Shown: positions 11,987-28,916, numbered from the stretch's first letter. The stretch is DNA of 32,000 nt from Candidatus Saccharimonadota bacterium (GCA_002421785.1 DIRZ01000002.1:330001-362000), one strand, 5' to 3'. Program-made: numbers and translations. Notes: generated by a model from the letters alone, not told the origin.

Positions 11987-12735
11987 TGAGAGGACGAGCA
12001 ATCCGCCAGGGGTTCACGATCGTTGAGCTATTAATTGTTATTGTGGTTATTGCTATTCTGGCGGTTGTTACGGTTGTTGCGTTTAATGGCGTCCAAGACA
12101 GAGCGCGGCGGACGGCGCTGTCGTCAGAAGTGGTTGCAATCGCTAAACAGCTTCGTCAAGACCAGGCAATTAATGCTGCTTACCCGGCGACGCTTGCCGA
12201 TGCGAATGGCGGCGCCGGCGTTAAAACCAATGCTGGGTTAACGCTCCGGTATTCGGTGAATAACGCAACGAATCCCCAGACGTTTTGTGTGACGGCAACC
12301 GATGGAAAGCTGAGCTACATGGTGGGTGAGGCCGGGGTTGCAAGCGAAGGTGGCTGTGTGAACGTGGCGCTGGGCTCAACAAGCCCGAATGCACTGCTAA
12401 CTGATGGCATCACGACTTCGAGCCCGTACCATAGCGGTGCGGTAGGGCTGGTATCTGTCACTGTTACGCTCCCTGCGACGCACACAATTTCGACGGTGAA
12501 GGTGTGGCATTACTATGCGGACGGGCGCCGTTACAACGCAACGCGAACAGAAGTCAGCGCAGATAACGTGACGTGGACCACTATATTCGACAGCGCATCG
12601 AGCGGTACGTATGTCGAAACCTCTGCCGGCAAGACCCATACATTTTCGGCACAACCTGTCAGGTACATTCGCGATTGGATTAACGGTTCGACAAGCAATA
12701 CAGGTAATCACTGGGTAGAAATTCAGGCGTACTAG
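11986..12735 (+). CDS. modular type IV pilin with a C-terminal discoidin (F5/8 type C, CBM32-like) domain
   Basis: N-terminus MRGRAIRQG|FTIVELLIVIVVIAILA. C-terminus VKVWHYYADGRRYNATRTEVSADNVTWTTIF...VRYIRDWINGSTSNTGNHWVEIQAY. The start shares 1 nt (TAATG) with the upstream stop. Confidence 0.85.
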   Translation: MRGRAIRQGFTIVELLIVIVVIAILAVVTVVAFNGVQDRARRTALSSEVVAIAKQLRQDQAINAAYPATLADANGGAGVKTNAGLTLRYSVNNATNPQTFCVTATDGKLSYMVGEAGVASEGGCVNVALGSTSPNALLTDGITTSSPYHSGAVGLVSVTVTLPATHTISTVKVWHYYADGRRYNATRTEVSADNVTWTTIFDSASSGTYVETSAGKTHTFSAQPVRYIRDWINGSTSNTGNHWVEIQAY

Positions 12736-12739
12736 GCAA

Positions 12740-13702
12740 ATGCGTAAGCAATCGATGCAAAAACAGGGGTTTACGGTTGTGGAATTACTGATTGTTATTG
12801 TCGTTATTGCTATTCTTGCAGTGATAACAATCGTGGCGTTTAACGGGATACAGCGACGTGCGCAGGCCGCTGCGGTGAGCAGCTCGCTGAATCATGTTGC
12901 GAAAAAGCTCAGGCTCTATCAAGTTGATAATGGAGTGTACCCACCGACTTTGGCTGATGCGGGCGTTACCGATGATGCGGTAACGTACCAATACGCTAGC
13001 ACGACAAGTACGTACTGCATAACCGGAACGCAGGGGAGCACGAGCCTGTATGTCAGTACAACCCAGCAGACGCCTACCGCCGGCGGTTGTCCTGGTCATG
13101 GGCAAGGTGGGACTGCTGCGGTCACTAACTTGCTTAGTAACCCAAGCGTGGAATTGAGTGATGCTGGGCTGTATCGATGGTTCGGTAGCAGCCCGGGTGC
13201 GGGCATCAATGAGCGGGTCGCTTCTATAGGGTTAAATGGGGGATATGCGGTGCGAAAAACGTGGTCCGTGTCGCCAGGTACTTCAGCGGATGCAGGATTT
13301 CAGTGGGCGTATTCAGCACCGACGGTTGGTCAAACCTACACCTGCTCGGCATATGCGACGGCTTCTGTGAATCAACAGATGCATGCACGGCTTGAATTTT
13401 ATGATATAGCCAACACGCGCTTTGCTAATGCAAATGGCGGCACAATGTCGGTATCGGCGAATACGCTGACCCGTATGAATGTGACGGGGACCGTGCCAGC
13501 TAATACCGTTCGTTTGCAATGTGTTGTGGAGGTAGCTACTGGTGGTTCATACGTGAACTTTGTGCCGGGGAATAGCATGTGGGCAGATGCAGCTATGCTA
13601 ACAGAAGGAACCACGCTTCATCCTTACGCCGATGGGGCGTCTTCAAACTGGGTTTGGAATGGTGCGACCCATGCGTCAACCTCAACAGGCCCGGCCCTGT
13701 AA
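12740..13702 (+). CDS. modular type IV pilin with a C-terminal CBM4/9-like jelly-roll module
   Basis: N-terminus MRKQSMQKQG|FTVVELLIVIVVIAILA. C-terminus TNLLSNPSVE...W...MWADAAMLTEGTTLHPYADG. Confidence 0.85.
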   Translation: MRKQSMQKQGFTVVELLIVIVVIAILAVITIVAFNGIQRRAQAAAVSSSLNHVAKKLRLYQVDNGVYPPTLADAGVTDDAVTYQYASTTSTYCITGTQGSTSLYVSTTQQTPTAGGCPGHGQGGTAAVTNLLSNPSVELSDAGLYRWFGSSPGAGINERVASIGLNGGYAVRKTWSVSPGTSADAGFQWAYSAPTVGQTYTCSAYATASVNQQMHARLEFYDIANTRFANANGGTMSVSANTLTRMNVTGTVPANTVRLQCVVEVATGGSYVNFVPGNSMWADAAMLTEGTTLHPYADGASSNWVWNGATHASTSTGPAL

Positions 13703-13737
13703 GATGGTGCGAGGTTGAAGATGTTTCATGCTTACGC

Positions 13738-13743
13738 TATGAT
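13738..13743 (+). promoter_or_regulatory. -10 box TATGAT 6 nt from the ATG of the fourth pilin gene
   Basis: TATGAT at 13738-13743 and ATG at 13750. No SD sequence. Confidence 0.3.
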
Positions 13744-13749
13744 ACAACT

Positions 13750-14256
13750 ATGAAAAGACGATGGATTGACCGAGGGTTTACGGTAATTGAGTTACTGATG
13801 GTCATTGTGATAATTGCTGTTCTGGCTGTGGCGACGGCAGTGACGTACCGTGGCGTGCAGGACCGAGCAAAAGACGCCGTGCGGGTCCAGGACGCAGCGA
13901 TGATTAATAAAGCACTACAGGCATACAATGCCCGTAATGGGAACTACCCTAATGAGCAGAGCTCGGACTGGGAATATAGCTATAACTATCCCACAACGTT
14001 CATTTCCGCGCTCGTAGCTAGTGACACTGTCAACGCGGTACCGGTCGACAAGGTCAACACACTCAGTGGTGGCTACTATCGTTACTACCGTTATACGGCC
14101 GGTAATTATAGTTGCGATGCGACCAAGGGCGATTTTTATGTGTTCCAAATCATTAAGCCGGGCGGGGGACAGTCGCCGCAGTCACCGGGGTTTAGCTGTA
14201 GTGGTCGTAACTGGGCGTCAGAAGCCTGGTATACGATGGGCGGCTACCAGCTGTAA
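13750..14256 (+). CDS. type IV pilin / pseudopilin (168 aa)
   Basis: N-terminus MKRRWIDRG|FTVIELLMVIVIIAVLA and an NGNYP motif. Start moved to the internal Met because the track ORF 13579 start overlaps the previous pilin gene. Confidence 0.8.
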   Translation: MKRRWIDRGFTVIELLMVIVIIAVLAVATAVTYRGVQDRAKDAVRVQDAAMINKALQAYNARNGNYPNEQSSDWEYSYNYPTTFISALVASDTVNAVPVDKVNTLSGGYYRYYRYTAGNYSCDATKGDFYVFQIIKPGGGQSPQSPGFSCSGRNWASEAWYTMGGYQL

Positions 14257-14286
14257 ACGCGTGGGGTGCTTCAACACAATAAACAC

Positions 14287-14315
14287 TAGTCAATTCTGCC
14301 ATAATCTGGTATACT
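14287..14315 (+). promoter_or_regulatory. candidate promoter TAGTCA-N17-TATACT with TGG extended -10
   Basis: TAGTCA at 14287-14292 and TATACT at 14310-14315, preceded by TGG. Confidence 0.4.
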
Positions 14316-14387
14316 TATAAGGTTATTAACCTAAGGTTGCCCACATGTGAGGTAACCATCCATACGGATTCCAAAGGAGGTATCTAT
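14316..14387 (+). promoter_or_regulatory. structured rpsF 5' leader, a candidate S6:S18 autoregulatory element
   Basis: 13-nt palindrome AGGTTA-T-TAACCT (14320-14332). Hairpin GGTTGCCCA-CATG-TG(A)GGTAACC (14335-14357). SD AAAGGAGG at 14373-14380. Confidence 0.3.
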
Positions 14388-14747
14388 ATGAAGGAATATG
14401 AACTAACTGTTCTTATCCACCCCGATCTGGAAACAGATCTCGAAGCGCCACTCGAAAAAGTGCGCACACTTGTTACTGCGAACGGCGGTAACGTTATTAA
14501 AGAAGACAACCAGGGCAAAAAGCGCTTGGCATACCGAATCAAGGGCGAAGATTTTGCCGTTTATGTATACATGGACGTTGAACTTCCTGCTGAAGCACTG
14601 CTAAAAATTAGCAACACGCTTAATATCACCGACGAAGTACTTCGCTACCTGCTCGTCAAAGTTGACGAAAAGGGCCGCGCATTGCTTGCTGAAGCAAAAG
14701 AACGAGCGAAGAATAACGATAACGCCGAAGACGACAGCGAAGAGTAA
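14388..14747 (+). CDS. rpsF: 30S ribosomal protein S6
   Basis: MKEYELTVLIHPDLE... with an acidic tail. Strong SD. Start moved to Met 14388. Confidence 0.95.
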   Translation: MKEYELTVLIHPDLETDLEAPLEKVRTLVTANGGNVIKEDNQGKKRLAYRIKGEDFAVYVYMDVELPAEALLKISNTLNITDEVLRYLLVKVDEKGRALLAEAKERAKNNDNAEDDSEE

Positions 14748-14782
14748 ATAGTAACCAGGGTAGGCGTAAAGGAGAGTAGGGT

Positions 14783-15235
14783 ATGGCAAAGGGATTCAAT
14801 AAAGTAACATTGATGGGTAATTTAACCCGCGACGTTGAAATGCGTACGACGCCTAGTGGTCAGTCTGTGGCGAATTTCAGCTTGGCAGTTAGCCGAAGCT
14901 GGAAAGGCCAGGACGGCCAAACTCAGGAGCAGACCAGTTTCATTAACTGTGTTGCCTGGGGCAAAGCCGGCGAGATTATCGCTCAGTACGTCAAAAAAGG
15001 TGATGCACTCCTCGTGAGTGGCCGCCTAGACCAACGTAGTTGGGATGACAAAGAGTCAGGGCAGAAGCGCTCAACTATCGAAGTGAACGTCGAAGACTTC
15101 AATTTCGTTGGCGGTAACCGTGGTGGCGACAATGCCAGCGCACCAGCCAGCAGCCCATCAAGCAGTAAAAGTAAAGATGTCGTGATTGAGGATATTGACG
15201 ATAAGCCAATCGACCTCAGCGAAATCCCATTCTAG
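14783..15235 (+). CDS. ssb: single-stranded DNA-binding protein
   Basis: OB-fold N-terminus (NKVTLMGNLTRDVEMRTTPSG), Gly/Ser-rich linker, acidic tip DLSEIPF. Conserved rpsF-ssb-rpsR gene order. Confidence 0.95.
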   Translation: MAKGFNKVTLMGNLTRDVEMRTTPSGQSVANFSLAVSRSWKGQDGQTQEQTSFINCVAWGKAGEIIAQYVKKGDALLVSGRLDQRSWDDKESGQKRSTIEVNVEDFNFVGGNRGGDNASAPASSPSSSKSKDVVIEDIDDKPIDLSEIPF

Positions 15236-15247
15236 GAGATAAGAATT

Positions 15248-15448
15248 ATGATGAAACGATTTAAAAAAGACGCACCTGCGTTTTTCGACTACAAAGATGC
15301 GAAAACACTCATGCGCTATATCAATGTGTATGGTCAGATTGAGCCAATCAGCAAAACTGGTCTAAGCGCTAAGCAGCAGCGCCAGCTTGCAGTCGCGATT
15401 AAGCGCGCACGTCACCTTGCGTTGATGCCATTCGTAGCGCAGGGCTAG
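15248..15448 (+). CDS. rpsR: 30S ribosomal protein S18
   Basis: [50 protein letters not shown]. The start could equally be 15251. Confidence 0.95.
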
Positions 15449-15451
15449 TCG

Positions 15452-16012
15452 ATGTATCAGCCAACTGATTTGAAAAAAGGCGTGGTTTGCCAGATTGACG
15501 GTAAGCCTTACCGCGTGATTGACTATGGCCAGAAGGTTATGGGGCGTGGCGGTAGTATCGTGAATGTGAAGCTCAAAAACCTGATTGACGGAAGTGTTAT
15601 TCCCAAAACATTCAAGGGGCAGGACAAGATTGAAACCGCTGAAGTAAGTAACAAAACCGTCCAGTACTTGTACAGTGACGGCGATACGTACTACTTCATG
15701 GATCCAGAAACCTTTGAGCAGTTTGAGCTTTCGAGCGACACTGTTGACGACGCAAAAAGCTACCTAAAAGAAGGGGATAGCCTGACGCTGCAGTTCTTTG
15801 GTGAGCGCATCATCAATGTCGAGCTACCAAAGAACTTGTTTTTGGAAGTTACCTACACCGAAGACGTGGTCAAAGGCGACACCACTAGCAGCGTGCTTAA
15901 GGACGCTACCCTTGAGACCGGTCTAACTGTGAAGGTGCCGTCATTCATCAAGACGGGTGACGTCATCAGTGTTGACACCGGCACAGGTGAATACCGCGAA
16001 CGTAAGAAGTAA
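15452..16012 (+). CDS. efp: elongation factor P
   Basis: 186 aa, DLKKGVVCQIDGKPYRVIDYGQKVMGRGGSIVNVKLKNL. Confidence 0.96.
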   Translation: MYQPTDLKKGVVCQIDGKPYRVIDYGQKVMGRGGSIVNVKLKNLIDGSVIPKTFKGQDKIETAEVSNKTVQYLYSDGDTYYFMDPETFEQFELSSDTVDDAKSYLKEGDSLTLQFFGERIINVELPKNLFLEVTYTEDVVKGDTTSSVLKDATLETGLTVKVPSFIKTGDVISVDTGTGEYRERKK

Positions 16013-16027
16013 CGATAAGCGGTTTAG

Positions 16028-16036
16028 TGATAAAAT
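16028..16036 (+). promoter_or_regulatory. extended -10 (TGA-TAAAAT) 6 nt from ATG 16043, a candidate leaderless promoter
   Basis: TG at 16028-16029, TAAAAT at 16031-16036, ATG at 16043. It overlaps the left arm of the efp terminator. Confidence 0.4.
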
Positions 16037-16070
16037 AGGCGTATGTGGAAGCACAAGCGCCTATTTTTTG
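16033..16070 (+). terminator. efp intrinsic terminator
   Basis: 9-bp stem AAATAGGCG (16033-16041) / CGCCTATTT (16058-16066), 16-nt loop, and a T-run to 16069. Confidence 0.7.
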
Positions 16071-17713
16071 TGGCAGGGGGAATCCTGATTGCCGCTATTT
16101 GTGCGCAGCTACTGTACCCGTATGACATGGCGTTGCCACTGGCGCGTTCACAGGGGAGTGTGGTCGGGTTCCGAACACGTAACGAGCTGGCTGCACAGTT
16201 CCAACAGCAATTTGAATCCGCCTCGGTTGCGGTTGCAAATGGTGATCGTACGGCGACTAGAAAACTTTCCGCGCTCGGAGCGACGCTCAATGCGGACCGG
16301 ATGGCCGATACTCTGACCGCCTACCCTTTATGGCTGCGATTTATTCCATTTTCCGCGATTATTATGCAGCCTCAGGTAAAGACACTCGATGTCGAACTAG
16401 CCGGTACAAAGCTGCAGGAGAACACTGCAAGTATCGCGACCGAGCTTTCGTACAGTCCTACCGATGCGACGCTCGCTATCAATGACGGTAAGCTAGCGGT
16501 CGTGGCTGCACGTAACGGAAAAACCGTCACCGCAAAAGACGTGAGAAGCGCGCTGATTACGACGCAGTACACGGCGGGTATCACGAAGATGACCGTAAAG
16601 GCAGTAAATGCGCCCCCGGCGCGGGCAGATACAGATATCGCAACGGCAAAAGCTCAGGCTGAGCTGGCGCTGTCACGGACTATTACCCTGAATATTCAGG
16701 GTAAGGGGGAGTTTACTCCTGACGTCGCGACGCGTGCAAGCTGGCTTGTCATTAAGCTTGACGTTACACCCGCCACACTGACCGTTGACCGCGATAAGGT
16801 GCTGCAGTACGTCAACGGCGTTAATGGCAAAGTTGCCGTAGCGCCGCAAAGTATGACGGTGACAGTTGTTGACGGTAACGAAACAGGGCGAAGCGGTGGC
16901 ACAAATGGCAGCGCTCTCGATACGGCCGCCGTCACAGACGAACTGTCGGTAGCCCTAATCGATGGGGCGAAGCCCGCTACCGTGACAGCTGCGATGCAGC
17001 CAGTGGCACCCGGAATCATATATGCGAGGAGCTATACAAACAGTCAGGAGGGACTGCGAGCGTATGTTGCCTATGCGACGAGCACGCAAAATGTCCGCAT
17101 CGTCGTGCAGCAGCTCGATGGGCCGGGGTGGGGTGCGAGCGGGCGAGCGGATGAAAGCCTGCCAAGTGCCAGTACCTATAAGCTATTTGTGGCAAAGATG
17201 CTGTTCAAGAAGATGGACGAGGGCGCAATTCACTGGGATGACCCTATTCTTGATACGAATGTGAGCGGCTGTTTTGATCGCATGACGATAGCCAGTACGA
17301 ACCCCTGTGCTGTTGAGTGGCTGCAGCAGTTTGGCCGCGACAACATGAATGATTACGTGCACTCCCTCGGGTTCAGCGGGGGAACATCGTTTACTCACCC
17401 TACAGCCGTGCACACGACTGCGGGCGATTTGGCAAAGTTCATGATTGGCCTAGAAAACGGCAGCCTGATAGGCGGGGATTATCGTAACCGGTTGTATCAG
17501 TCGCTGTCGTCGCACCCGTACCGGAATGGCATACCTACTGGGGTAAAAGGAACGGTGTACGACAAGGTTGGCTTCTTGTGGGATTACGTGCATGATTCGG
17601 CAATCGTTTACGGGCCGAAGGGGACATATGTGTTGGTGATCATGACCAAAGGCTATTCCTATGCCTATATTGCGAACGTCGCCCGCCAAATTGAATCGAT
17701 AATGTACCCTTAG
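16043..17713 (+). CDS. membrane-anchored serine hydrolase with a class A beta-lactamase-like C-terminal domain
   Basis: N-terminal TM helix (LFFVAGGILIAAICAQLL). SxxK motif (SASTYKLF), SDN-like ASTNPCA, KTG-like DKVGF. Confidence 0.75.
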   Translation: MWKHKRLFFVAGGILIAAICAQLLYPYDMALPLARSQGSVVGFRTRNELAAQFQQQFESASVAVANGDRTATRKLSALGATLNADRMADTLTAYPLWLRFIPFSAIIMQPQVKTLDVELAGTKLQENTASIATELSYSPTDATLAINDGKLAVVAARNGKTVTAKDVRSALITTQYTAGITKMTVKAVNAPPARADTDIATAKAQAELALSRTITLNIQGKGEFTPDVATRASWLVIKLDVTPATLTVDRDKVLQYVNGVNGKVAVAPQSMTVTVVDGNETGRSGGTNGSALDTAAVTDELSVALIDGAKPATVTAAMQPVAPGIIYARSYTNSQEGLRAYVAYATSTQNVRIVVQQLDGPGWGASGRADESLPSASTYKLFVAKMLFKKMDEGAIHWDDPILDTNVSGCFDRMTIASTNPCAVEWLQQFGRDNMNDYVHSLGFSGGTSFTHPTAVHTTAGDLAKFMIGLENGSLIGGDYRNRLYQSLSSHPYRNGIPTGVKGTVYDKVGFLWDYVHDSAIVYGPKGTYVLVIMTKGYSYAYIANVARQIESIMYP

Positions 17714-17719
17714 CTAGGG

Positions 17720-17725
17720 TAGAAT
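17720..17725 (+). promoter_or_regulatory. -10 box TAGAAT 6 nt from the tlyA ATG
   Basis: TAGAAT at 17720-17725 and ATG at 17732. No SD sequence. Confidence 0.3.
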
Positions 17726-17731
17726 AGATAT

Positions 17732-18454
17732 ATGAAGATACGACTTGACCAAGCCCTCGCGCGGCAAGGGCTCACGCCGACACGCTCTCAGGCAGAGAGC
17801 TGGATTAAGCTTGGCAAGGTAACGGTAGATGGACGGGTTGTCACAAAACCGGGGCATTTTGTGGATGAAGCAGCTATGATTGCACTGACCGCCACTGAAC
17901 AGTATGTTAGCCGAGCGGGGCTGAAGCTGGCGAGTGTGGCAGGCAAGTTCCGTGTGACGTTTGAGGGTAAGGTAGTGCTCGACGTTGGCAGCAGTACGGG
18001 CGGATTTACCGACTATGCGCTGCAGCATGGCGCCAAGCTGGTGTATGCGGTTGATGTGGGTACCGACCAGCTTCACCCGAGCCTGCATGGTCACGAGCGC
18101 ATTGAACTCCACGAAAAGACGGATATCCGTTCATTTCGGCCAGCTGAGGTACCCGACGTCGTAGTGATTGATGTGTCATTCGTGAGTCTACGGGATATCC
18201 TCCCTCATGTTGCGACTATCACAGGCCCGCAGACACTCATTCTGGCCATGGTCAAGCCACAATTTGAAGCCAATCGTGCCCAGGTGGGGAGTAGCGGGGT
18301 TATCAAAAACGACACTGTTCGACGTACTATTTTGCGCGATTTTGAACAGTGGTCGCGAACGTATTTTATGATACAAGACAAAGCCGATAGTGAAGTAAAG
18401 GGCTCTCGCGGTAATCAAGAGCGTTTTTATGTGCTACGAACCCTGGTGAAGTAG
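17732..18454 (+). CDS. tlyA: TlyA-family rRNA 2'-O-methyltransferase (S4 domain plus FtsJ-like methyltransferase)
   Basis: MKIRLDQALARQGL..SRSQA-type S4 N-terminus and SAM motif LDVGSSTGGFTDYALQHGA. Confidence 0.9.
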   Translation: MKIRLDQALARQGLTPTRSQAESWIKLGKVTVDGRVVTKPGHFVDEAAMIALTATEQYVSRAGLKLASVAGKFRVTFEGKVVLDVGSSTGGFTDYALQHGAKLVYAVDVGTDQLHPSLHGHERIELHEKTDIRSFRPAEVPDVVVIDVSFVSLRDILPHVATITGPQTLILAMVKPQFEANRAQVGSSGVIKNDTVRRTILRDFEQWSRTYFMIQDKADSEVKGSRGNQERFYVLRTLVK

Positions 18455-18464
18455 GGGTAAATAC

Positions 18465-18492
18465 TTGCATTTAATGCAAAATATGATATTAT
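18465..18492 (+). promoter_or_regulatory. promoter TTGCAT-N16-TATTAT with TGA extended -10, overlapped by a palindrome
   Basis: TTGCAT at 18465-18470 and TATTAT at 18487-18492, preceded by TGA. The palindrome TTGCAT-TTA-ATGCAA (18465-18479) covers the -35. Confidence 0.5.
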
Positions 18493-18621
18493 AAAACGTA
18501 ACGGTGGCTTGTCTTTCATGGCAAGCCAGTGTTGTGTTCGACCAGAACGCGTAGTTTTAGCTGCTCGTCTGGTGCGAGTAGTTAAAAATCTGGTCATTAC
18601 CAACAAAGAAGGGAGACGTAG

Positions 18622-20190
18622 ATGCCTCGCATCACGTCGTGGCTCAAGAAGTCACTCACGGTCTTCATGACCGTGGCTCTCGTGGGCAGCCTGGGAGCTG
18701 GTGCCGCGCATGCGGAAACCACCCCGCCTCCGAGCGCCACCGCGACGATCACGGAAGTGATCATCCCCGAGAAGCCCCCGTTCGATGACCCCTGCAACCC
18801 TGTGGGTGTCACGAGCAACATCGACTGGACAGGGCCGCTTCCGGCCTCCACCGACGAGATCCTGTGGATCGAGAACGCCAAGGGTGATGTCCGCACGGCG
18901 TCGCTCATCGACACGGCCAACACGGTCTGGTCCGACGGCACGGTGAGCCCCAAGCCCTACCGTCTCGTCGATTCCGGCGTCGCCTGCGAGGTTCCCATCG
19001 TCAAGGTCACGAAGCCCTCGGCTCCGTTGCCCCTCGACGAGTGCAACCCCGTCGGCGTCACGAGCAACATCAAGTGGAAGGACCCGCTTCCGGCCGACAC
19101 GGCCCAGATCAACTGGACCGAGAACGCCGCGGGCACCGTCCGTACCGCTGCGCTGGTCGACACCGAGAAGACCACCTGGGACGACGGTTCCGTCGCACCC
19201 CTGACCTTCACGCTGCCGGCTGATTCCGGCGTCGCCTGCGAGGTTCCCATCGTTCAGACCAAGGCATTCGTGTGCAAGTACGTGGGCACGGGCGAGAACG
19301 AGCGTCTGCAGACGGGGAACAACCCGATCATGATCGACCGCAAGGACGACATGGTCATCGGTTCGTTCTTCGGCGACGCGCAGAACCGCAGCGTCGTCAT
19401 CGGTTTCGGCAACCCGGGCGATCCGGACATGCCGATTTCCGCCTGCCCGGCTCCGCCCGAGACCCCGGACCCTGTCGTGACTGTCACGACCGAGTCCCGG
19501 GACAACTGCGAGCTCGGCTACGTCCAGACCCGGACGGTCACCACCACGCGTTCCTACACGTGGCAGGGAACCGACGGTTGGGTACTGGGCGACCCTGTGT
19601 CCAGCTACGGCGAGTGGGTTAACACCGACACGCCGGCAGCTGACTGCGAGGTCGTGTACCTGGACTTCACTCCTGTGACCGTCACCGCCACCTGTGGCGC
19701 CGTGACGTTCGCGAATCCGACCGGCAACCCTGCGGTCACCGTGTACTACGGTGACTTCATGCTGGGTGCGCCGGATGGTTCAGTGGTCGTGAAGCCCGGC
19801 AAGTCGGTGAAGGTGAAGACCGAACGGACTTCGCTGGACGGCATCGTCTTCGCCGAGGGGTACTACGATCAGCTGTTCGAGAACGTGGCCGTGGAGCAGA
19901 AGTGCGCCACACCGGTCGATCCCAAGCCCCCGGTCAAGCCGGAGCCTCCGGTTGTCACCAAGCCTCAGCCGCCGGCTCCGCAGAGCGAATGGGTCGACAC
20001 CGAGAAGCTGGTGAAGCCCGTGATCGACGCGGGCATCGACACGCCGGCAACGGTGACCTCGCTGGTCGGCGGCTCGGTGTTCAACACCACCGCTACCGGC
20101 ATCGCTGTGGCAACCCTGCTGCTCATGCTGAGCGTGGCTCTGGCCTGGCGTCAGCGCAGCAAGCTCGCCGCGGTGTTCACCCGGCGGTAA
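18622..20190 (+). CDS. secreted, C-terminally anchored, GC-rich repeat-containing surface protein (522 aa)
   Basis: Signal peptide ...GAGAAHA|ET. Two tandem modules of about 84 aa. Pro-rich stalk PVDPKPPVKPEPPVVTKPQPPAPQ. C-terminal hydrophobic helix plus RQRSK...RR tail. About 67% GC (40/60 at 18661-18720). Confidence 0.85.
   Translation: MPRITSWLKKSLTVFMTVALVGSLGAGAAHAETTPPPSATATITEVIIPEKPPFDDPCNPVGVTSNIDWTGPLPASTDEILWIENAKGDVRTASLIDTANTVWSDGTVSPKPYRLVDSGVACEVPIVKVTKPSAPLPLDECNPVGVTSNIKWKDPLPADTAQINWTENAAGTVRTAALVDTEKTTWDDGSVAPLTFTLPADSGVACEVPIVQTKAFVCKYVGTGENERLQTGNNPIMIDRKDDMVIGSFFGDAQNRSVVIGFGNPGDPDMPISACPAPPETPDPVVTVTTESRDNCELGYVQTRTVTTTRSYTWQGTDGWVLGDPVSSYGEWVNTDTPAADCEVVYLDFTPVTVTATCGAVTFANPTGNPAVTVYYGDFMLGAPDGSVVVKPGKSVKVKTERTSLDGIVFAEGYYDQLFENVAVEQKCATPVDPKPPVKPEPPVVTKPQPPAPQSEWVDTEKLVKPVIDAGIDTPATVTSLVGGSVFNTTATGIAVATLLLMLSVALAWRQRSKLAAVFTRR
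18784..19254 (+). repeat. in-frame tandem duplication, two modules of about 252 nt (84 aa)
   Basis: CNPVGVTSNI(D/K)W...DSGVACEVPIV occurs twice. There is an exact 32-nt identity GATTCCGGCGTCGCCTGCGAGGTTCCCATCGT at 18970-19001 and 19222-19253. Confidence 0.85.
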
Positions 20191-20295
20191 TGGCCACCCT
20201 CGCTCCGCTTCCTAGGAAGTAGGGCACTTTGGGGTCGTTCCCGGTTCGCTTCGTGCGTTCCGGGGGCGGCCCCCTCTTTAATATCCATGAGTCGA

Positions 20296-20324
20296 TTTAC
20301 AAAATATCATATTTATGCTATAGT
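20296..20324 (+). promoter_or_regulatory. promoter TTTACA-N17-TATAGT with TGC extended -10
   Basis: TTTACA at 20296-20301 and TATAGT at 20319-20324. The spacer ends with TTTATGC. Confidence 0.6.
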
Positions 20325-20411
20325 TTATAATAAGCTCTCGTCGTGAGGGCATGTATCTGGTTTATCCAGATGTTCGACAATTCGATTCCAAGACAGGTGA
20401 AGGAGGTGACT

Positions 20412-21182
20412 ATGCGTCACGCATCGCGAATGAAAGCCTGGGTGTTCTGGATGATCGCCCTCGCTGCAAGTACGCTCGTCGCAACGCTGGTCTACGTACT
20501 TTTCAGTCAGCCACCCCAGCCGACGCCGGTAGTCACCGCACCAGTTGCCACGCGTTCAACGCCGCCGCCAGTTGCAGTCAGCCCGACGTCCACACCTACG
20601 CCATCACCCACGCCCAGTCCGACGGTATCACCACCCGTGCTAATCGAGCAGTCGATGCCCGAGGAGCTGTATGTGCCATCATTGGACATCAAACGTGATG
20701 TGGCCAAGGCGCCCTGCCCGATAGTCAACGGCAAGATCGATCCTGCTCGCGACGACTACATGCGCACGTGTGCAGTACGTGGGGCGGGCCTTCGCACCGA
20801 ATTGCCTGGTACGTCAGCGCCAAACACCACGATGATCGTGGGGCACACCTGGCACGCTAAGCCCACCTGGCAGGCAAGTGTCGACTCTGCTGCTTTCAAC
20901 GCCCTGTACAACTGGGACAAGGGAGACGCAGGGGAATACACCCTGAGGGTAGGTGATGAAGTGTGGGTGCGCACGGAGGCAAGCGGTAGTCGCTGGCTGG
21001 TGTACACCGTCACAGGCTTCGACGAGCCCACCAAGACTGTCGGCAACGACAACTTGTGGGGTTTTCAGGAGCAACCGGTGCCTGGCCAGCTCAAACTTGT
21101 CGGGTGTCAGCAGAAGACCGATGGCACCAAGTCCACCAACAACATTGTGGTAAACGCCCAGTTTACCCGTGTTCAGGGCTAG
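20412..21182 (+). CDS. sortase-like transpeptidase (class E/F-like), membrane-anchored with a Pro/Thr-rich linker
   Basis: GAAGGAGG SD 6 nt upstream of the ATG. TM helix, then MIVGHTWH (His), VGDEVWV...YTV, LKLVGC (TLxTC-like Cys) and NNIVVNAQF. Start moved from 20343. Confidence 0.65.
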   Translation: MRHASRMKAWVFWMIALAASTLVATLVYVLFSQPPQPTPVVTAPVATRSTPPPVAVSPTSTPTPSPTPSPTVSPPVLIEQSMPEELYVPSLDIKRDVAKAPCPIVNGKIDPARDDYMRTCAVRGAGLRTELPGTSAPNTTMIVGHTWHAKPTWQASVDSAAFNALYNWDKGDAGEYTLRVGDEVWVRTEASGSRWLVYTVTGFDEPTKTVGNDNLWGFQEQPVPGQLKLVGCQQKTDGTKSTNNIVVNAQFTRVQG

Positions 21183-21205
21183 CAAGTCTGCCAGGAATCG
21201 AATAC

Positions 21206-21251
21206 GCCCCCAATCCATGCCGAAAGGTGTGGAGCGGGGGCTTCTTTATTT
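21206..21251 (+). terminator. possible terminator between the sortase-like gene and ychF
   Basis: GCCCCC-(24 nt)-GGGGGC followed by TTCTTTATTT. The long loop makes it weak. Confidence 0.35.
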
Positions 21252-22328
21252 GGACACGTTAAAGCGGAATTCGACCACGTCGTCGGGTTTCATGACATAC
21301 TCGCGGCCCTCGGTGCGGACTTTGCCCGCAGCTTTGGCGGCGGCTTCTGAGCCTGCGCTCACCAGGTCGTAATAATCGACGATTTGCGCTGCAATGAAGC
21401 CGCGCTCGAAATCAGTGTGAATCACTCCGGCAGCTTGGGGAGCGGTAAAACCTTGTTTAATCGTCCAGGCGCGAACTTCTTTGGGCCCTGCGGTCAGGTA
21501 GCTTTGGAGGCCGAGGATGTCGTAGGCAGCATGAATCATTTGCGTCAGGCCCGCTTCGGGAATGTCGTATGCAGCCAATAGCTCGGCTGCGTCAGAAGGG
21601 TTTAACCCTTTAATTTCGTCCTCAAGCTTTGCGCAAATGAATAGCGCATGGCTCCCCTCGGCGAGTTCTTTTAGCTCGGCTTTTTTGGCGTCATCTCCTA
21701 GCGTTTCTTCATTTACATTGAACACGTAAATGACGGGTTTGGCTGTCAGCAGGTGTAAGTCCTGAATGAGTTCTGTCTGCAAATCACTCACATGGGTAAG
21801 CAGGACGCCACTTTCAAGGTGGGTTTTGAGTGATGCAAGGTATTCGGCCACACTTTTTGCCTTTGGGTCGGCTTTTGCTTCTTTGTGCAGGCGTAGTAAT
21901 CGGGTCTCAATGGTCTGCAGGTCGGCTAGCGCAAGCTCGGTATTGATTGTTTCGATGTCACGCTTGGGGTCAACGCCATCTTCGACATGTAATATGTCTG
22001 AATTCTCGAACGCCCGAACAATATGCACGATGGCGTCGCATTGGCGAATGTTGGCCAGGAACTTGTTGCCCAGGCCTTCACCTTTGCTAGCGCCAGCGAC
22101 GAGGCCAGCGATATCTACAAAGGTAACGGTTGCGGGGATGATTTTCTCGGCATTATAGAGCCGTGCTAGCATGCCAAGTCGCTTGTCGGGTACTGGCACG
22201 ATACCGGTGTTAGGCTCAATGGTGGCGAATGGGTAATTAGCCGCCAAAATGTCGTTATTTGTCAGGGCGTTAAACAGGGTAGATTTGCCTACATTTGGTA
22301 GGCCAACGATGCCTATACTGAGAGACAT
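21246..22328 (-). CDS. ychF: ribosome-binding ATPase YchF (Obg-like GTPase family)
   Basis: [24 protein letters not shown]1 motif. 360 aa with a TGS-like C-terminus. Confidence 0.95.
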
Positions 22329-22755
22329 GGTTGACCTTTTCGTAGGCTGGCGTTAGTGATGGTAAGGGAATGTGTCCCCATATTGTGATCTCCTTTGGAC
22401 TTGCAACGATTTTATCGATGACGCGCTCTATTATAAATTTCTTTTGCTCAAACTCTAGCATGCCAATTTTCCGGGTTGCTTTAAGAATGAGCTCTTCAAT
22501 GTCTATTTTATCAATAATACCTCTGTTTTTCGAACTATTGGCCAATTGTGTGGACAGAGTATTTATTTGCTTGTTGGTTTCGGACATCTGCGAGCTGAAT
22601 AACTCTTCGTCGATCAGACCTTTGCCATATGCATCCAAGTACCGTTTCTGCTCGTTCTTAAGCGATCTAAGAGACTCATCATATGATTGTGAGTTCGCGT
22701 TCGTCTTCTGTATGATTCGCTGCTCTTGCCATCTTTCAGCATGCTCACGGATCAT
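22270..22755 (-). pseudogene. C-terminal remnant of a large serine recombinase (coiled-coil and tail only, no catalytic or zinc-ribbon domains)
   Basis: YLDAYGKGLIDEELFSSQM...coiled coil...FIIERVIDKIVASPKEITIWGHIP matches the typical tail of large serine recombinases. The recombinase-like part is about 22366-22755. The ORF then reads out of frame into the ychF 5' end. Confidence 0.55.
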
Positions 22756-22800
22756 TTTAGGATCCGATAGGAGCTTATTCGCATAGGCGTCGAACCAAAT

Positions 22801-23061
22801 ATGTGCAACACGGCTACTGAAGCTGTCTTCGAGAATTTTGAACTACCAGTACAGGAACGCAAATTGTTTTATGAGCGGGTATCTCAGTATCAAACGATGG
22901 ATCATACTAAAGTTGCCGAAAGTTTTATTAATAATCTGAGCGTAGATGATTTTCCGGAGACCTACAAAGACTCTTCAAACAGAATACTTGGTGAGCAGTT
23001 TGGCGATCTCTCGGCTGCAATTAAGAGGTATGTAAATGATCAACTCAAAGCAGTTAAGTGA
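22801..23061 (+). CDS. hypothetical protein (86 aa)
   Basis: ORF only, with no clear SD and no recognised motif. It is the first plus-strand ORF of the island. Confidence 0.35.
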   Translation: MCNTATEAVFENFELPVQERKLFYERVSQYQTMDHTKVAESFINNLSVDDFPETYKDSSNRILGEQFGDLSAAIKRYVNDQLKAVK

Positions 23062-23143
23062 TGCTGATATAGCAGTTTTAGTGGACTATTTTAAACTTTT
23101 AATAGAAATTGAAACCGAACAGAGAATTAACAGAGACGAATAA
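23036..23143 (+). CDS. possible 35-aa protein (MINSKQLSDADIAVLVDYFKLLIEIETEQRINRDE)
   Basis: Hand-translated. AAGAGG lies 8 nt upstream. It overlaps the previous ORF by 26 nt. Confidence 0.25.
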   Translation: MINSKQLSDADIAVLVDYFKLLIEIETEQRINRDE

Positions 23144-23176
23144 CCGTTCAGTGTGCGATAATTATCTTTAAGAGTC

Positions 23177-24004
23177 ATGAGTTTTTTAGATAACTACGTA
23201 ACGCTTGAAGAAGTACAAGAGGACAATTGCCTATGGCTTAAATACCAGGTTGTTTACGCTGCGGATGCAACGGTAGACATGTTGGCCGATAAAATAGCCG
23301 AGTTGATAATCGAAACAAGATGCCCTGCTGTAATTTACAATCAATGGGTTGATGCGCATGCAGAGGCGGTGACCTTATCCGATATTCAAAAGGAGGCGCT
23401 TCGTATATATATCAAGCCGAGCATAGGGTTACCCGGTAAGTCGGCAACGGATAATGAGTTACAAGCGGTAGTTGCAGAGTATTTCTGGTATGAGATTGTG
23501 AAAAGTAGGGAAGAGCCTGAAGATTTGGTGGATATCCATAAGCCAAGCCTCAGGGTGACAGAGCCGGGTGGCGATGGGTTGGTGATTTATCAGGCTGATT
23601 ATGAATCGTATATTTTCCGTTTGTGGGAGGTTAAGAAGCATGTCACTGATGTCTCGGCTACGAGTAAAATCACCAAAGCTAGTAAGCAGCTGAAAGATAA
23701 CGGGGCGGAGTATCTTGCGAAATTAAGCAAGGTTGAACAAGAGCGTGATCGTGAATATCCGGGACTTTCTCAATATTACGCAGAGCTTGTGCCTAAGTGG
23801 TTAGAATCTTCAAGCGATGCGCACGCGGGGGTTTCGTTATCAAAAGACGACGTAAGCACGGTGACGACGAACCCGATAGGAATTATGAAGACTTATCTAC
23901 CGGGCTTAAACGGCGATAAGCAGCTATCGGCAATTATTATATCAATGCCCGATTTTGCTGAATTTACTAAAAAAGTACAAAGATCTTTATGGAAAGATAT
24001 TTAA
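23177..24004 (+). CDS. PD-(D/E)xK-like nuclease candidate (HamA/DUF1837-like by architecture, unverified)
   Basis: 275 aa. Motif GGD133G...(17 aa)...E151-V-K153 after a helix AEYFWYEIV. AAGAG SD. The 3' end overlaps the helicase start by 16 nt. Confidence 0.6.
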   Translation: MSFLDNYVTLEEVQEDNCLWLKYQVVYAADATVDMLADKIAELIIETRCPAVIYNQWVDAHAEAVTLSDIQKEALRIYIKPSIGLPGKSATDNELQAVVAEYFWYEIVKSREEPEDLVDIHKPSLRVTEPGGDGLVIYQADYESYIFRLWEVKKHVTDVSATSKITKASKQLKDNGAEYLAKLSKVEQERDREYPGLSQYYAELVPKWLESSSDAHAGVSLSKDDVSTVTTNPIGIMKTYLPGLNGDKQLSAIIISMPDFAEFTKKVQRSLWKDI

Positions 24005-27000
24005 AGCTTGAGAATATAGAGATGGCACTTGGCGGTCAGGCTAATTTGCCTACCGCAGAAGAACTTCAGGTTGCATTATCTAAAGCGGAGTCTGACCTTT
24101 TTACCGAACAAGGAATTATATCAGAGGACTTGTTAAAATCTGCATGGTATTTGTACAGTGTCGCGGCGGCCCGCAAGAGCCTCGAGTTATATAGTGTTGA
24201 CAGGCAACGTCGGGCATACCAAGTATCGGCGCATATATTTGATTTAGCACTTCAAATTAATAGGGATAGCGCAAACGATCAATTAAGCTTGGTGTTTGCC
24301 GCGCAAGTCGGGTATATGAAGGGTGATCTCAATCCTAATGCTGCTGCTATTTATAGGAGGTTTGGATATGCCGACGGTGTTGCCGACATTGAGGACGAGA
24401 ATTTACCGTTGATTATAGGCACTATGTTTTTGGCTATGGATAGGTCGAGACTTTTTAGAGTATTGCCATTCTTAAGACAGAAAGTTGCAAGCTTTGAGTC
24501 CTCGACAGAAGGACGACTGGGCGTGTTAAGTCTGTTACTCGATGCATGTTGGGACTTACTCCGGTATGTTTCTTACGGAGATAATGAAGCGTATATTAAC
24601 TCACTAACTTCATTAGAAAATATTGTTAGGTCTGATGTAGGCTTGGATGATGTAGATATGAGATGGGTCGCTGCGCACCTATTGGATATTGCGGAAGACT
24701 TTGGCAATTCATCAGTTTGGTCGATGCTGCCACCCGATGTACCTCCTGAAGCGGCTCGAGCCATGACCCTAGGGTCACCGCCTGTACTTAATCTATGGCC
24801 GCCACAGGCAAGGCTTATACGAAGCGACGATACGAACAATCCATTACTGCTGACTACTAAAAGGTTGTTCTTATCCATTCCAACGAGTGCAGGTAAGACG
24901 CTTCTCGCACAGTATATCGCTGTAGCGCACTTAGCACAAAATGGTGGGGGAATTTGCTTTGTAGCGCCTACGCATAGCTTGTGTAGAGAGATCAGAAAGT
25001 CTTTAAGTGATCGACTTCGTCTTCTTAGGCAAGAGGTTGCTCCGGAAGTTCCTGTTGGTTTTTTAAGTTTTTTCGATGATGAGATCGAGGGGAATGAATC
25101 GTCACCAGTTGAGGTGGTAACTCCTGAAAGATTAGCCTTCATGCTAAGGTACCGGCCGAAAGAAACCCTCGATAAATTTAAGCTTTTTATTATTGATGAG
25201 GCACATCTAATAGCTGAAGACTCCAGAGGCTTGGCTCTAGAGTCGACGTTAAGTCTTTTGCAGATGCTCACTAAAGACAGCGAACATAGAATTATTCTTA
25301 TGTCCTCATCACTGGGCGAGGGTGGACACGTGGTGGACTGGATGGGTGTTGAAGGATCCAACAGAACGTTCCACTCAGAATGGCGAGGGCCTAGAAGGCT
25401 ATACGGATTGTATAGCGTTGAACGTAGCGATACTGAGCCGCAAGTTATTGAGCATGAGCACCGAGGCGTGAGCGAGAGACATTTTCTGTACAAGAACAAT
25501 GGCGTGATCGCACTGAAACTGGCGGATACCCCGCAAATTCATAGATCCCTTATTGCTCGTGATGTAGGAGTTACTCGTACTCGACCAAGAACTCGAGGAA
25601 ATAACGAAGGGGCTTATAAAGTTTATTCCGAAAAATCGACACCGTTTTACAAAACCCTAGTTCCTCTTGTAGATAGTGTGGCGAAGTCTGGCCCCGTTCT
25701 AGTTATTATGCCTACAAGGGTGATGGCTCAAGGTTTAACCCGTGCAATAGCGGAGGCTAGGCCGGTAGATGACCAAATGGATGAGCTGGTTGAACTTGCT
25801 GAAGCCAGGGTGGGTTCAGAGCACCTAATTACGAAAATGCTAAGAAAAGGCGTTGCTTTCCATCATGCGGCGTTACCAGTTGACTTACAGGTTGCGATTG
25901 AACAGGCCGTAAGAAGTGGAAAGATAAATATATTAGTGTCAACTACGACACTTGCTGATGGTGTTAACTTACCGGTAAAAACTGTGATCATTGGGAGTAC
26001 AGGCGCCTATGGAGCGGAAGGTTTTAACGACTATATTTCTGGTGCAAAGTTGGTTAATGCAATCGGAAGAGCAGGAAGAGCGGGCAGGGAGACTGAGGGC
26101 TGGATTATTCTTGCTGACAGTCAATATAATGAACAAAACTTTAGTCGACTCGAGATGGCTAATCCATCAGAGAGTGCTCTTGTTTCTCGGTTGACTAGTG
26201 AGATTGCGTTACTATCATTATCAAATATGGAAGCCTCGATAAGGGGCGGTGAGCGTGAACTGTTTGATTTTAATGACGCTTTTGCAAGTGATTTCGCAAG
26301 TTATATTTGGATCGTAGCGAACACGCTTCTGGAAGTTAAAGATGCAGTTGTTGTCGAAGATATCGATTCGTTCCTGGAGTCGACATTAGCATGGCGGCAG
26401 ATGGATGAAGATCTGCGTACTCGTTGGAAAGACATTGCACGCGAATCCTTTGCTATATATGAAGCAACGCCCGCTGCTAAGAGGAAAAGGTGGGCACAAT
26501 CTGGTATTAGTGTCTCTTCTGCTCGTAAGCTGGAGGAATTGTCTGACGATATATTGGGTCGTTTTTTAATTGCCTCAATCGATGCGGATGGCAACCTAGA
26601 TCCTAATCAGGATGCTGACTTACTTTTGACCGATGACACACTAGATCTTCTCTTCACGCTACCTGAAGCTCCGAAGACGGATTTCAGACCTTTTAGATCG
26701 GCCAGTGCAGACAATAGCATACAAGTGAGTCATCGACAGCTTGTTAAGGACTGGATTAACGGAGTGGATTTGACACAGCTTGTCGAAACGCACTTATCGA
26801 GTATTGAAGATAGAGAATATGCTTACGAGATATTAGGAGACTATATTACAAACGTTTTTCAGCACTATCTGCCTTGGACGCTAGGCGTGCTAATTGACTG
26901 GGTGAATATTAACTCTGATGAAGTAATGGAGGGTAAGCCACTTATAAACCCCCAAATTGCTTCATTTGTCAGGTATGGCGTGGATAGCCCTTACGCACTG

Positions 27001-27516: not shown

Positions 27517-27663
27517 TTTTTTTTGCGCATGGACCAAGTACGGAAAAACGAAATGTAAAAGGGAAGGTAGGGGTATGTTTATTTCTGAGAACTAGAGGGG
27601 GGGGGAGAACTTACACACGTAGAGAAGGAGCAAGTCCTGAGGATAACTACCTCTGTTGACTGT

Positions 27664-28662: not shown

Positions 28663-28668
28663 AGTCAA

Positions 28669-28674
28669 ATTATA
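28669..28674 (-). promoter_or_regulatory. -10 box TATAAT 6 nt from the DUF4238-like ATG
   Basis: Reverse complement of 28669-28674 is TATAAT. The ATG is the reverse complement of 28660-28662. No SD sequence. Confidence 0.35.
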
Positions 28675-28900
28675 CTAGGAGTGATCTAGAGATAGGATAT
28701 TATTCTGTATGTATTGAGATGAATAGCCGCGTCCACTGTCGGGTTTTGGCATCATGAAGGTGATTGCGAAAGGTATAGCTAAGTCCTCGCTATGCCGATG
28801 GATAAACTCATAGTTATAGTATAGAGGTAGTGGGCCTTCATATCAAGCAGTACAGGGGTAGTGGTAATCGTGCGGAATAGTTGCGGTGGGGCAGGGCGCG

Positions 28901-28909
28901 TGATACCAT
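28901..28909 (+). promoter_or_regulatory. extended -10 (TGA-TACCAT) 7 nt from ATG 28917
   Basis: TG at 28901-28902, TACCAT at 28904-28909, ATG at 28917. Confidence 0.35.
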
Positions 28910-28916
28910 AAGTGAT

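Follow-up and report, generated by a model that had tools for sequence, protein, structure and literature searches.

A stretch of 32,000 nucleotides (nt) from Candidatus Saccharimonadota bacterium (GCA_002421785.1 DIRZ01000002.1:330001-362000), referred to below as the window (W), carries between tlyA and ychF a cassette of two genes, which encode a modular surface protein and a putative sortase (Table 1). Also present in the window are genes for PNPase, RNase J, FtsK, prephenate dehydratase, several type IV pilins in a row, RpsF, SSB, EF-P and a PBP-like protein, besides those for TlyA and YchF. The same gene order is found at relatives with a TlyA identity of 64-96%, including Candidatus Saccharibacteria UBA2952 and UBA2951, and these syntenic Saccharibacterial loci, together with the type IV pilins of the window, therefore point to a Saccharibacterium (TM7) as the source of the window backbone, in agreement with the epibiont lineage guessed in a preliminary description of the locus. 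Saccharibacteria live attached to Actinomycetota. Several of the relatives were sampled from sewage or bioreactor metagenomes, and the taxon labels of the comparison loci (L-numbers; P-numbers denote comparison proteins) are those of the titles of the metagenome-assembled genomes (MAGs). An assembly chimera was ruled out, the same junctions being present in independent NCBI, ENA, JGI and Logan assemblies. No description of the tlyA-ychF cassette was found in the searched literature.

Table 1. Elements of the cassette and its two boundary genes, with positions in the window (aa, amino acids; GC3, GC content at third codon positions; TM, transmembrane).
Feature	Position	Strand	Details
tlyA-type rRNA methyltransferase gene, left boundary	17732-18454	+	S4 and FtsJ domains; Pfam PF01728, PF01479; GC3 0.54
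Surface-gene promoter	18465-18492	+	TTGCAT (18465-18470), 16 nt, extended -10 TGATATTAT (18484-18492)
Structured 5' leader RNA	18493-18621	+	~130 nt, then ribosome-binding site GGGAGAC; from fold and covariation
Surface-protein gene	18622-20190	+	522 aa; GC 0.653; GC3 0.859
Signal peptide	18622-18714	+	aa 1-31, MPRITSWLKKSLTVFMTVALVGSLGAGAAHA followed by E (cleavage AHA/E); read from translation
Two A repeats	18751-19251	+	83 aa, two Cys each; aa 44-126 and 127-210; DNA repeats D1, D2
B domain	19252-19497	+	aa 211-292, with FVCKYVGTGENERLQTGNNPI (VCKYVG segment)
C-terminal sorting-signal-like region	20014-20187	+	KPVIDAGID (aa 465-473), 19-aa spacer, TM helix (aa 493-509), tail RQRSKLAAVFTRR
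Intrinsic terminator of surface gene	20231-20280	+	GC-rich hairpin (20231-20274), then TCTTTA
Sortase-gene promoter	20296-20324	+	TTTACA, 17 nt, TG-TATAGT; 10/12 consensus positions, extended -10
Divergent putative sortase gene	20412-21182	+	256 aa; N-terminal TM helix, Pro/Thr linker, catalytic domain; GC 0.60; GC3 0.68
Terminator-like hairpin at cassette end, abutting ychF 3' end	21231-21254	+	–
ychF GTPase gene, right boundary, convergent with cassette	21246-22328	-	Pfam PF06071, PF01926; GC3 0.56; backbone composition

The surface-protein gene is compositionally foreign to the window backbone. The window has an average GC content of 51%, and its 24 other genes range from 0.41 to 0.55 in GC and from 0.39 to 0.65 in GC3, compared to a GC3 of 0.859 for the surface-protein gene. 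As the preliminary description had stated, the composition switches at the start codon; over the first 30 codons GC3 is already 0.77, and the leader has 47% GC. Five alternative-frame open reading frames (ORFs) lie over the gene region (18597-18953(-), 18957-19250(-), 19254-19505(-), 19272-19622(+) and 19902-20222(+)), again as described before. With GC1 (0.60) and GC2 (0.50) being backbone-like, the excess is found in GC3, where A, C, G and T account for 0.03, 0.49, 0.38 and 0.11 of the third positions; codons ending in A are almost missing, and those ending in G and in C are both preferred. Hence, the amino-acid composition was rejected as the cause of the high GC. Translational selection was likewise rejected as the cause of the high GC3, as rpsF, ssb and efp have GC3 values of 0.47-0.60 and both G- and C-endings are favoured. 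The extent of the anomaly, previously set at 18465-20280, had to be revised, as it runs past 20280 and includes the next gene (GC 0.598, GC3 0.68), which had been missed. The anomaly is thus a two-gene module of surface protein and sortase, with GC3 stepping down from 0.86 in the surface gene to 0.68 in the sortase and 0.56 in ychF.

The translation of the first gene contains all the parts previously listed for it, namely a signal peptide, two Cys-containing repeats, the VCKYVG segment, a Pro-rich stalk and a C-terminal anchor. Its N-terminus, M[PR]RITSxLxKxL, is common to the window protein and those of L001, L002, L080-82, L085 and L086. The A repeats, which follow the pattern DPCNPxGVTxN..W...LPADT...RTA.L...W.DG...LPADSGVAC and are carried by 57 proteins, are all-beta in the AlphaFold model, with a predicted local distance difference test score (pLDDT) of 84-95 over aa 41-208, and are predicted to be disulfide-type beta repeats. 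The B domain is the most widespread part of the protein, being carried by 104 proteins, and is followed by two poorly modelled regions and the Pro-rich stalk. At the C-terminus, the candidate sortase-recognition stretch KPVIDAGIDTPA precedes a hydrophobic helix, GIAVATLLLMLSVALAW, and a positively charged, Arg-rich tail. At a distance of ~20 residues on the N-terminal side of the helix, W, L002, L083, L086 and P0006 share the motif KPxx[ND][AT]G[IV][DE], which is kept wherever the window-type sortase is present; distant homologues bear LPQTG, LPATG, LADTG or LAxTG. No model in Pfam or NCBIfam matched the surface protein, B domain included, and sequence searches of the PDB with the surface protein and the sortase returned only noise. 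The copy number of repeats and domains varies within species: P0001 has three A repeats where the window protein has two, and L085 (5538-7784) and L086 (6075-7784) combine identical sortases with surface proteins of 748 and 569 aa, respectively. In P0009, a 422-aa protein on a 1.3-kb JGI contig, the last ~96 residues of the D/E region are joined to the chemotaxis signalling domain PF00015, a fusion that is probably an assembly or gene-calling chimera.

The product of the second gene matches the sortase family PF04203 of Pfam marginally (28.5 bits at a gathering score of 26.6, E 1.4e-6). Its AlphaFold model (pLDDT 77) gave 96 matches at E <= 0.001 in a Foldseek search of the PDB, all of them sortases among the matches listed, with Streptomyces coelicolor sortase E1 (5cuw) at the top (E 3.5e-7, probability 1.0, TM-score 0.64 on the target). 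Across 14 sortase sequences His146 (GHTW) and Cys233 (LVGCQQ) are invariant, and the candidate Arg (F-x-R-V near the C-terminus) is substituted in two. Because of the PF04203 match, the fold of an eight-stranded sortase beta-barrel in the model, the invariant His and Cys and the N-terminal membrane anchor, we call the gene a sortase gene, and the sequence comparisons suggest a very divergent, class-F-like enzyme. The window sortase had no match in NCBIfam at E <= 0.1 and did not reach the 166-bit cut-off of the class F model NF033748; for the syntenic sortases of L004 and L007, as for the actinobacterial neighbours, the best match is to class F, with 33-87 bits, below the cut-off. By hhalign, the window sortase family is matched to the class-F-like sortase of Nocardioides zhouii with a probability of 96.7% at ~31% identity. 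Only 16 relatives of the window sortase were found among 5.8 billion clusters. Upstream of the catalytic His, the family has an invariant LPGT tetrapeptide (residues 132-135) and a Cys103/Cys121 pair; this LPxT-like sequence inside the enzyme could act as a lid or pseudo-substrate.

The window-type sortase lies directly downstream of the surface gene in W, L001, L002, L083, L085 and L086, and a different class-F-like sortase is paired with other signals elsewhere (APHTG in L004, FDTG in L007, APHAG in L008 and SAHTG in L039). The type of signal therefore co-varies with the type of sortase, which argues for a dedicated enzyme-substrate pair. Most likely, the sortase cleaves the KPVIDAGID signal and links the surface protein to peptidoglycan.

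Expression of the cassette seems to rely on native elements. The promoter described earlier, TTGCAT-N16-extended -10, does lie in an AT-rich region upstream of the surface gene; its TTGCAT matches TTGACA at only 3/6 positions, hence its absence from the results of a consensus scan. In 7 relatives, no change was observed in the extended -10 block AAATATGATAT, and TGNTATWAT occurs five times in the window compared to 1.8 expected, with one copy upstream of RNase J. The palindrome TTGCAT-TTA-ATGCAA (18465-18479), suggested before as an operator, is real and overlaps the -35, but it is kept only in the closest relatives and is absent in L002 and L004. From the surface-gene promoter, AATATGATATT reappears as AATATCATATT at the sortase promoter, which is conserved in L001, L002, L083 and L086 and is followed by a short conserved leader. 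The 11-nt near-palindrome AATATSATATT is found exactly twice in the 32 kb (18480-18490 and 20303-20313; 0.41 expected), once per cassette promoter at or just before the -10, and may be a shared operator of both. The GC-rich hairpin previously noted after the stop codon is terminator-like and is preserved through compensatory changes in L002, L083 and L086.

Between promoter and ribosome-binding site, the leader is predicted to fold into a hairpin followed by a long-range helix that encloses a second hairpin (three helices in total), with a minimum free energy of -50.6 kcal/mol (z = -5.66). Compensatory changes were observed in 10/33 pairs, the observed covariation being reached in 0/500 shuffles, with ~4 independent sequence types underlying the covariation; in the alignment, 89.6% of cells are paired, compared to 36-46% with the partners slid. 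The leader recurs in L001 (9872-10003), L002 (9869-10003), L004 (7869-8003) and L083 (5729-5855), and its covariance model matched only upstream of the surface gene, in 10 relatives and the window, that is, in the model's source sequences and close equivalents. There was no match in L007, L008, L039 or 80 further tlyA loci; hence, the leader is specific to the clade and not a general feature of the site. Rfam gave no match at the gathering score for the leader or the window, the best being noise at 13-18 bits. We regard the leader as a candidate new cis-regulatory RNA; together with the promoter it is native and conserved.

Only 292 relatives of the surface protein were found among 1.84 billion representative proteins, and the best full-length matches are syntenic Saccharibacterial genes, not genes of Actinomycetota. 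The cassette is present at the same tlyA-ychF site in at least 10 other Saccharibacterial assemblies. Where the contig could be read (L001, L002, L080-L082), all proteins that match over most of the product are encoded between tlyA and ychF in a Saccharibacterial context, and the more distant matches cover one or two domains only. The surface genes of these loci are equally GC-rich, with GC3 values of 0.85 in L001 and L080-82, 0.91 in L002, 0.90 in L085 and L086, 0.86 in L083, 0.84 in L004, 0.85 in L007, 0.88 in L008 and 0.81 in L039, and flanks of 0.41-0.62. The syntenic genomes are far apart, with identities of 64-75% for TlyA and 71-86% for YchF, and 0.59-0.75 of the backbone four-fold degenerate sites differ from the window, which amounts to saturation.

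These relatives bear on the timing that the preliminary description had proposed, a recent and direct uptake by the window genome from a high-GC Gram-positive host. Such an event would readily produce the strong GC3 contrast with its sharp boundary at the start codon, the actinobacterial codon usage and the presence of a VCKYVG domain common in Actinomycetota; it is nevertheless very improbable, because homologues of the same lineage, at the same site and with the same composition (GC3 0.80-0.91), are found in relatives with saturated synonymous sites, and all proteins matching most of the product lie at the tlyA-ychF site where it is readable. Further arguments against it are that the best actinobacterial match reaches only 51% identity over 83 aa, that conservation and native character extend to the promoter, the leader and the signal peptide, and that the sortase next to the gene has diverged beyond the reach of all NCBIfam sortase models. 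Best homologues in the lineage of the flanking genes, with equally high GC there, are also what the preliminary description itself had named as contradicting its reading. Recent acquisition is thus not supported, and comparison of the loci indicates an old cassette shared by related genomes.

Invariably preceded by tlyA in the syntenic loci, itself of backbone composition, the cassette occupies an interval of varying content. In the comparison with 80 further tlyA loci from metagenomes (L087-L166, 61-74% identity), 69 tlyA loci could be resolved, in which the tlyA-ychF interval is empty in ~18 (gaps of 1-319 bp), of native GC in ~25 and of high GC in ~26, the high-GC cargo lying 6-18 GC points above its flanks. 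Direct adjacency of tlyA and ychF was seen in ~17-18 related loci, and the three states are distributed patchily on the TlyA tree; of the 11 loci in the clade of the window, 9 are high-GC and one pair is empty. High-GC cargos, of which 14 loci were examined, mostly fall outside the A/B family and code for proteins with a signal peptide, a TM helix and an Arg tail; LASTG, LPKTG or LAQTG is present in some, and in several cases a small sortase-like ORF comes next. The interval is therefore a variable hot spot across Saccharibacteria. The deviating composition and the patchy presence with empty sites favour the horizontal acquisition proposed earlier; closest homologues in another lineage, mobility genes or flanking repeats were not found.

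The scan of genomes for the A and B domains, for which a permuted A+B domain alignment (A2) was used, returned 73 loci. The B domain was found in ~45 loci of Actinomycetota, ~20 of Saccharibacteria/Patescibacteria and some of Chloroflexi, which verifies the association of VCKYVG with Actinobacteria proposed in the preliminary description. The actinomycetotal carriers include Microcella, Microbacterium, Occultella, Nocardioides, Marmoricola, Aeromicrobium, Demequina, Nakamurella, Gaiella, Ilumatobacteraceae and Acidimicrobiia, and in these genes GC minus flank GC is ~0 and GC3 is 0.64-0.94. At ~13 Saccharibacterial B-domain loci, the gene lies 0.10-0.19 GC above its flanks, and the third-position composition of the high-GC Saccharibacterial genes is indistinguishable from that of the actinomycetotal homologues. 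The homologues of three Actinomycetota loci (L053, L066, L073), which are from Nocardioides alpinus, N. zhouii and a further MAG, end in TAVNAG/TAVDAG and a TM helix, and a class-F-like sortase gene follows directly 3'. Across the phyla, B domains are up to 86% identical in amino acids and 80% in nucleotides (L083 vs L011), or 90% in nucleotides over 73 nt (L004 vs L012), and those of Saccharibacteria and Actinomycetota interleave in the tree. The shared domain, gene order, V[ND]AG-type signal and third-position composition make an origin of the module type in Actinomycetota plausible. The high-GC actinobacterial donor of the preliminary description is thus borne out by composition, domain, gene order and signal type, and not by any actinobacterial match to the whole product.

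The direction of transfer may also be reversed, or the family may be an ancient shared one, in which case the A/B proteins would be indigenous to Saccharibacteria/Patescibacteria, Actinomycetota would have taken VCKYVG from their epibionts, and the high GC in some Saccharibacteria would have another cause. Although native-GC members exist in Saccharibacteria, other Patescibacteria and Chloroflexi (L018, L031, L034, L050, L052, L067, L070, L021, L035) and the core A repeat is nearly confined to Saccharibacteria, as would be expected in this case, we consider it improbable, as it leaves the actinobacterial third positions of the ~13 Saccharibacterial copies and the unrelated cargos of the hot spot unexplained and as Actinomycetota, with at least 10 named lineages, show a far wider spread and greater diversity of the B domain. 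Homologues with B and A domains also occur in L005 (6999-8660) and L006 (5184-7331), on contigs with 45-48% GC; they have native GC3 values of 0.34 and 0.42 and carry canonical LADTG and LPQTG signals. An A repeat of L005 shares 76% identity with that encoded by the high-GC gene of L008; hence, the same domain lineage exists at GC3 0.33 and 0.88.

Sequence identity between W and L001 (window 13730-22322 vs L001 5106-13683) forms a mosaic, with 98-99% in rpsF and ssb, 73-89% in efp, pbp and tlyA, 89-99.7% in the surface gene, 74% in the anchor and terminator and 97-99.7% in the sortase and ychF. The anchor/terminator segment of ~400 bp (19.9-20.3 kb), with its 74% identity inside a 97-99% context, has been swapped. 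The mosaic points to frequent homologous recombination between diverged strains, which also accounts for the low synonymous divergence (dS) of the surface gene between W and L001 (0.14, compared to 0.6-1.7 in the flanks). A transfer of the cassette alone was rejected as the reason for this low dS, since the low-divergence tract also covers ychF and rpsF/ssb. The ratio of nonsynonymous divergence to dS (dN/dS) is 0.25-0.55 in the surface gene and 0.01-0.07 in the flanks, suggesting relaxed or diversifying evolution.

Comparison of more distant alleles shows the unusual persistence of the high GC3. Between W, L002, L004 and L083, the surface genes differ in their homologous stretches at 0.51-0.58 of the four-fold sites, close to the composition-limited maximum of 0.60-0.64, with ~1.2 substitutions per four-fold site; for single segments, these site counts are small. 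The same alleles have GC3 values of 0.84-0.91 from the first through the last codons, the first and last 30 included. Under the substitution regime of the backbone, such change should have erased more than half of the GC3 excess. As the alleles are saturated and still GC-rich, simple amelioration does not explain the persistence of a GC3 of ~0.87, for which repeated imports and maintenance in place are the candidates. The sortase is also saturated at its four-fold sites (0.64-0.73 differ), yet its GC3 is 0.58-0.72 in all lineages, compared to 0.45-0.60 in the backbone. Polarised synonymous singletons comprise 27 strong-to-weak (S>W) and 12 weak-to-strong (W>S) changes and imply an equilibrium GC3 of 0.7-0.8, from small counts, a result between the amelioration and equilibrium models.

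In the case of maintenance in place, the cassette would have been inherited since the ancestor of the clade, and a gene-specific force, for which GC-biased gene conversion in a hot spot of recombination and selection acting on properties of the mRNA or on GC-ending codons are candidates, would keep its synonymous sites G/C-rich, so that composition would be silent on the time of acquisition. We regard this as unlikely on balance, though by no means negligible. Alleles that share the leader, MxRITSxL, KPxx[ND][AT]G and the window-type sortase are near-saturated and all GC-rich, the saturated sortase stays above the backbone in every match to the sortase profile, the locus visibly recombines, and GC3 falls stepwise from the surface gene over the sortase to ychF, all of which agree with such a force. 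Its required strength is the difficulty: the GC3 excess of +0.35 goes far beyond the gene-conversion effects reported for bacteria, which Lassalle et al. in 2015 reportedly put at a few percent, and the S>W and W>S counts imply an equilibrium below the observed value. In addition, the interval has native-GC occupants elsewhere and the family has native-GC members, so neither site nor family enforces high GC, and the base-for-base match to actinomycetotal third positions would be a coincidence. In its stronger form, which we put forward only tentatively, a locus- or gene-specific process would actively hold the surface gene at a GC3 of ~0.87 (neighbour ~0.65) beyond the time of synonymous saturation. 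That this process is unusually strong GC-biased gene conversion in a recombination hot spot of surface antigens, or selection tied to the use of host DNA or to surface mimicry, is equally doubtful, and tlyA-ychF might then conceivably, if not probably, serve across Saccharibacteria as a site dedicated to the expression of sortase-anchored attachment proteins of the host-phylum type, equipped with a structured leader RNA of its own.

The reading that we prefer, with modest confidence, is that of a two-gene surface module of Actinomycetota origin with long residence at the site and turnover of its alleles. The first gene would code for a Sec-secreted modular protein made up of two beta repeats, the VCKYVG domain, the Pro-rich stalk and a sorting signal at the C-terminus, and the second for a dedicated, divergent class-F-like sortase acting on the KPVIDAGID signal of the first. 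Linked by the sortase to the peptidoglycan of the epibiont, the surface protein would serve in contact with host cells. The module type would derive from Actinomycetota, the host phylum. It sits in the variable tlyA-ychF hot spot, where a native promoter and a conserved leader RNA drive its expression, and it is found, equally GC-rich, throughout a Saccharibacterial clade with synonymously saturated backbones. Homologous recombination shuffles the alleles between strains; those of the surface gene would turn over fast in a pool that is re-seeded from high-GC donors, while the sortase would reside longer and be partly ameliorated. If the alleles diverged in high-GC donors and entered separately, the composition, the patchiness and the diversity of the cargos would be accounted for.

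Several observations weigh against this account. Re-seeding from donors is difficult to square with a leader, signal peptide, sorting signal and sortase that are shared and specific to the lineage; W, L002 and L083 have such features in common, with coding sequences that are near four-fold saturation and GC-rich to their ends. The uniform GC3 of the sortase at saturation looks like an equilibrium and not a decay. The ratio of GARP to FYMINK amino acids of the surface protein, 1.58, corresponds to the amino-acid composition of a mid-GC organism. No actinobacterial match covers the whole product, the core A repeat and the window-type sortase are each found almost only in Saccharibacteria, and four Saccharibacteria contain family members with a native GC3 of ~0.5, so that the family may be partly indigenous. 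The domain trees, being neighbour-joining trees of ~84 columns, are weakly resolved. Neither an integrase or transposase nor a boundary repeat was found within 18455-21245, a recombinase fragment being present only beyond ychF, and neither LPXTG nor LAXTG precedes the helix of the window surface protein, its pentapeptide being non-canonical. All functional statements, those on anchoring and host contact included, are drawn from sequence.

The known system closest to the cassette is that of the class F sortase/substrate pairs of Actinomycetota (N. zhouii L066, N. alpinus L053; NF033748). They have the same order, a secreted protein followed by a small membrane-anchored sortase, and their substrate, which starts with a VCKYVG domain, ends like that of the window in xxV[ND]AG, a TM helix and an Arg-rich tail and has the same third-position composition. 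In contrast to them, the window sortase lacks an NCBIfam match, is barely above the Pfam cut-off and is only ~31% identical, the substrate has two additional A repeats before VCKYVG and unrelated C and D regions, and the genome has 51% and not 70% GC. Class E sortases (S. coelicolor SrtE1, 5cuw; T. fusca SrtE) are the best structural match of the window sortase, and many actinobacterial members of the surface-protein family end in LAxTG (LALTG, LASTG, LAFTG), as in class E/LAXTG systems. The window sortase is, however, only 13-18% identical to class E and has the lineage-specific LPGT and Cys pair, and its substrate has neither LAXTG nor LPXTG. In terms of the amelioration model, by which Lawrence and Ochman are said to have explained in 1997 an outlying GC3 through the gradual approach of imported DNA to the composition of its recipient, the intermediate GC3 of the sortase fits, while the surface gene has not drifted despite its ~1.2 substitutions per four-fold site. 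A documented horizontal gain is the arginine deiminase system of mammal-associated TM7 (PMC8764695). A survey of horizontal gene transfer (HGT) in groundwater Patescibacteria counted 1 Actinomycetota-to-Patescibacteria event and expects old transfers to lose their GC signature (PMC12455944). As in these cases, an ultrasmall epibiont would have gained accessory functions, with composition as one signal; here, in contrast, the gain is a surface module of host-phylum composition in a conserved hot spot, with a signal that lasts over deep divergence.

Two further variable regions are found in the window. Just upstream of ychF, a low-GC insert (22270-28800, 41-45% GC) holds a C-terminal recombinase fragment (22270-22755), a 275-aa ORF, a 1175-aa DEAD/ResIII helicase gene (23177-27516) and a gene for a DUF4238 protein (27664-28668). 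It is missing in L002, L085 and L086, where ychF is directly followed by homologues of 28881-31597, and a serine-recombinase element is found at its position in L083 and L084; a second integration site, occupied by a mobile or defence island, is the probable explanation. In the other region (11447-14256), four type IV pilin-like genes, arranged in tandem and encoding N-terminal methylation motifs, have nucleotide identities of 68-75% to L001 and a changed order, compared to 98-99% in neighbouring genes, and form another fast-evolving surface locus.

Apart from type IV pili, little has been established on how Saccharibacteria recognise their hosts and stay attached to them. A conserved hot spot that repeatedly bears host-phylum-type, sortase-anchored proteins provides concrete candidates for attachment or mimicry factors, and tlyA-ychF is a defined locus at which strains of different host range can be compared. 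The preliminary description was partly right, on the host-phylum type and the surface function in an epibiont, and wrong on the timing: a strong GC3 outlier, usually read as a sign of recent transfer, is here old and stable. If the module is continually re-supplied by hosts, the locus would be a record of gene flow between epibiont and host; if it is held in place, bacterial genes would be able to stay far from the genomic composition for long. Either outcome bears on the compositional detection of HGT in reduced genomes.

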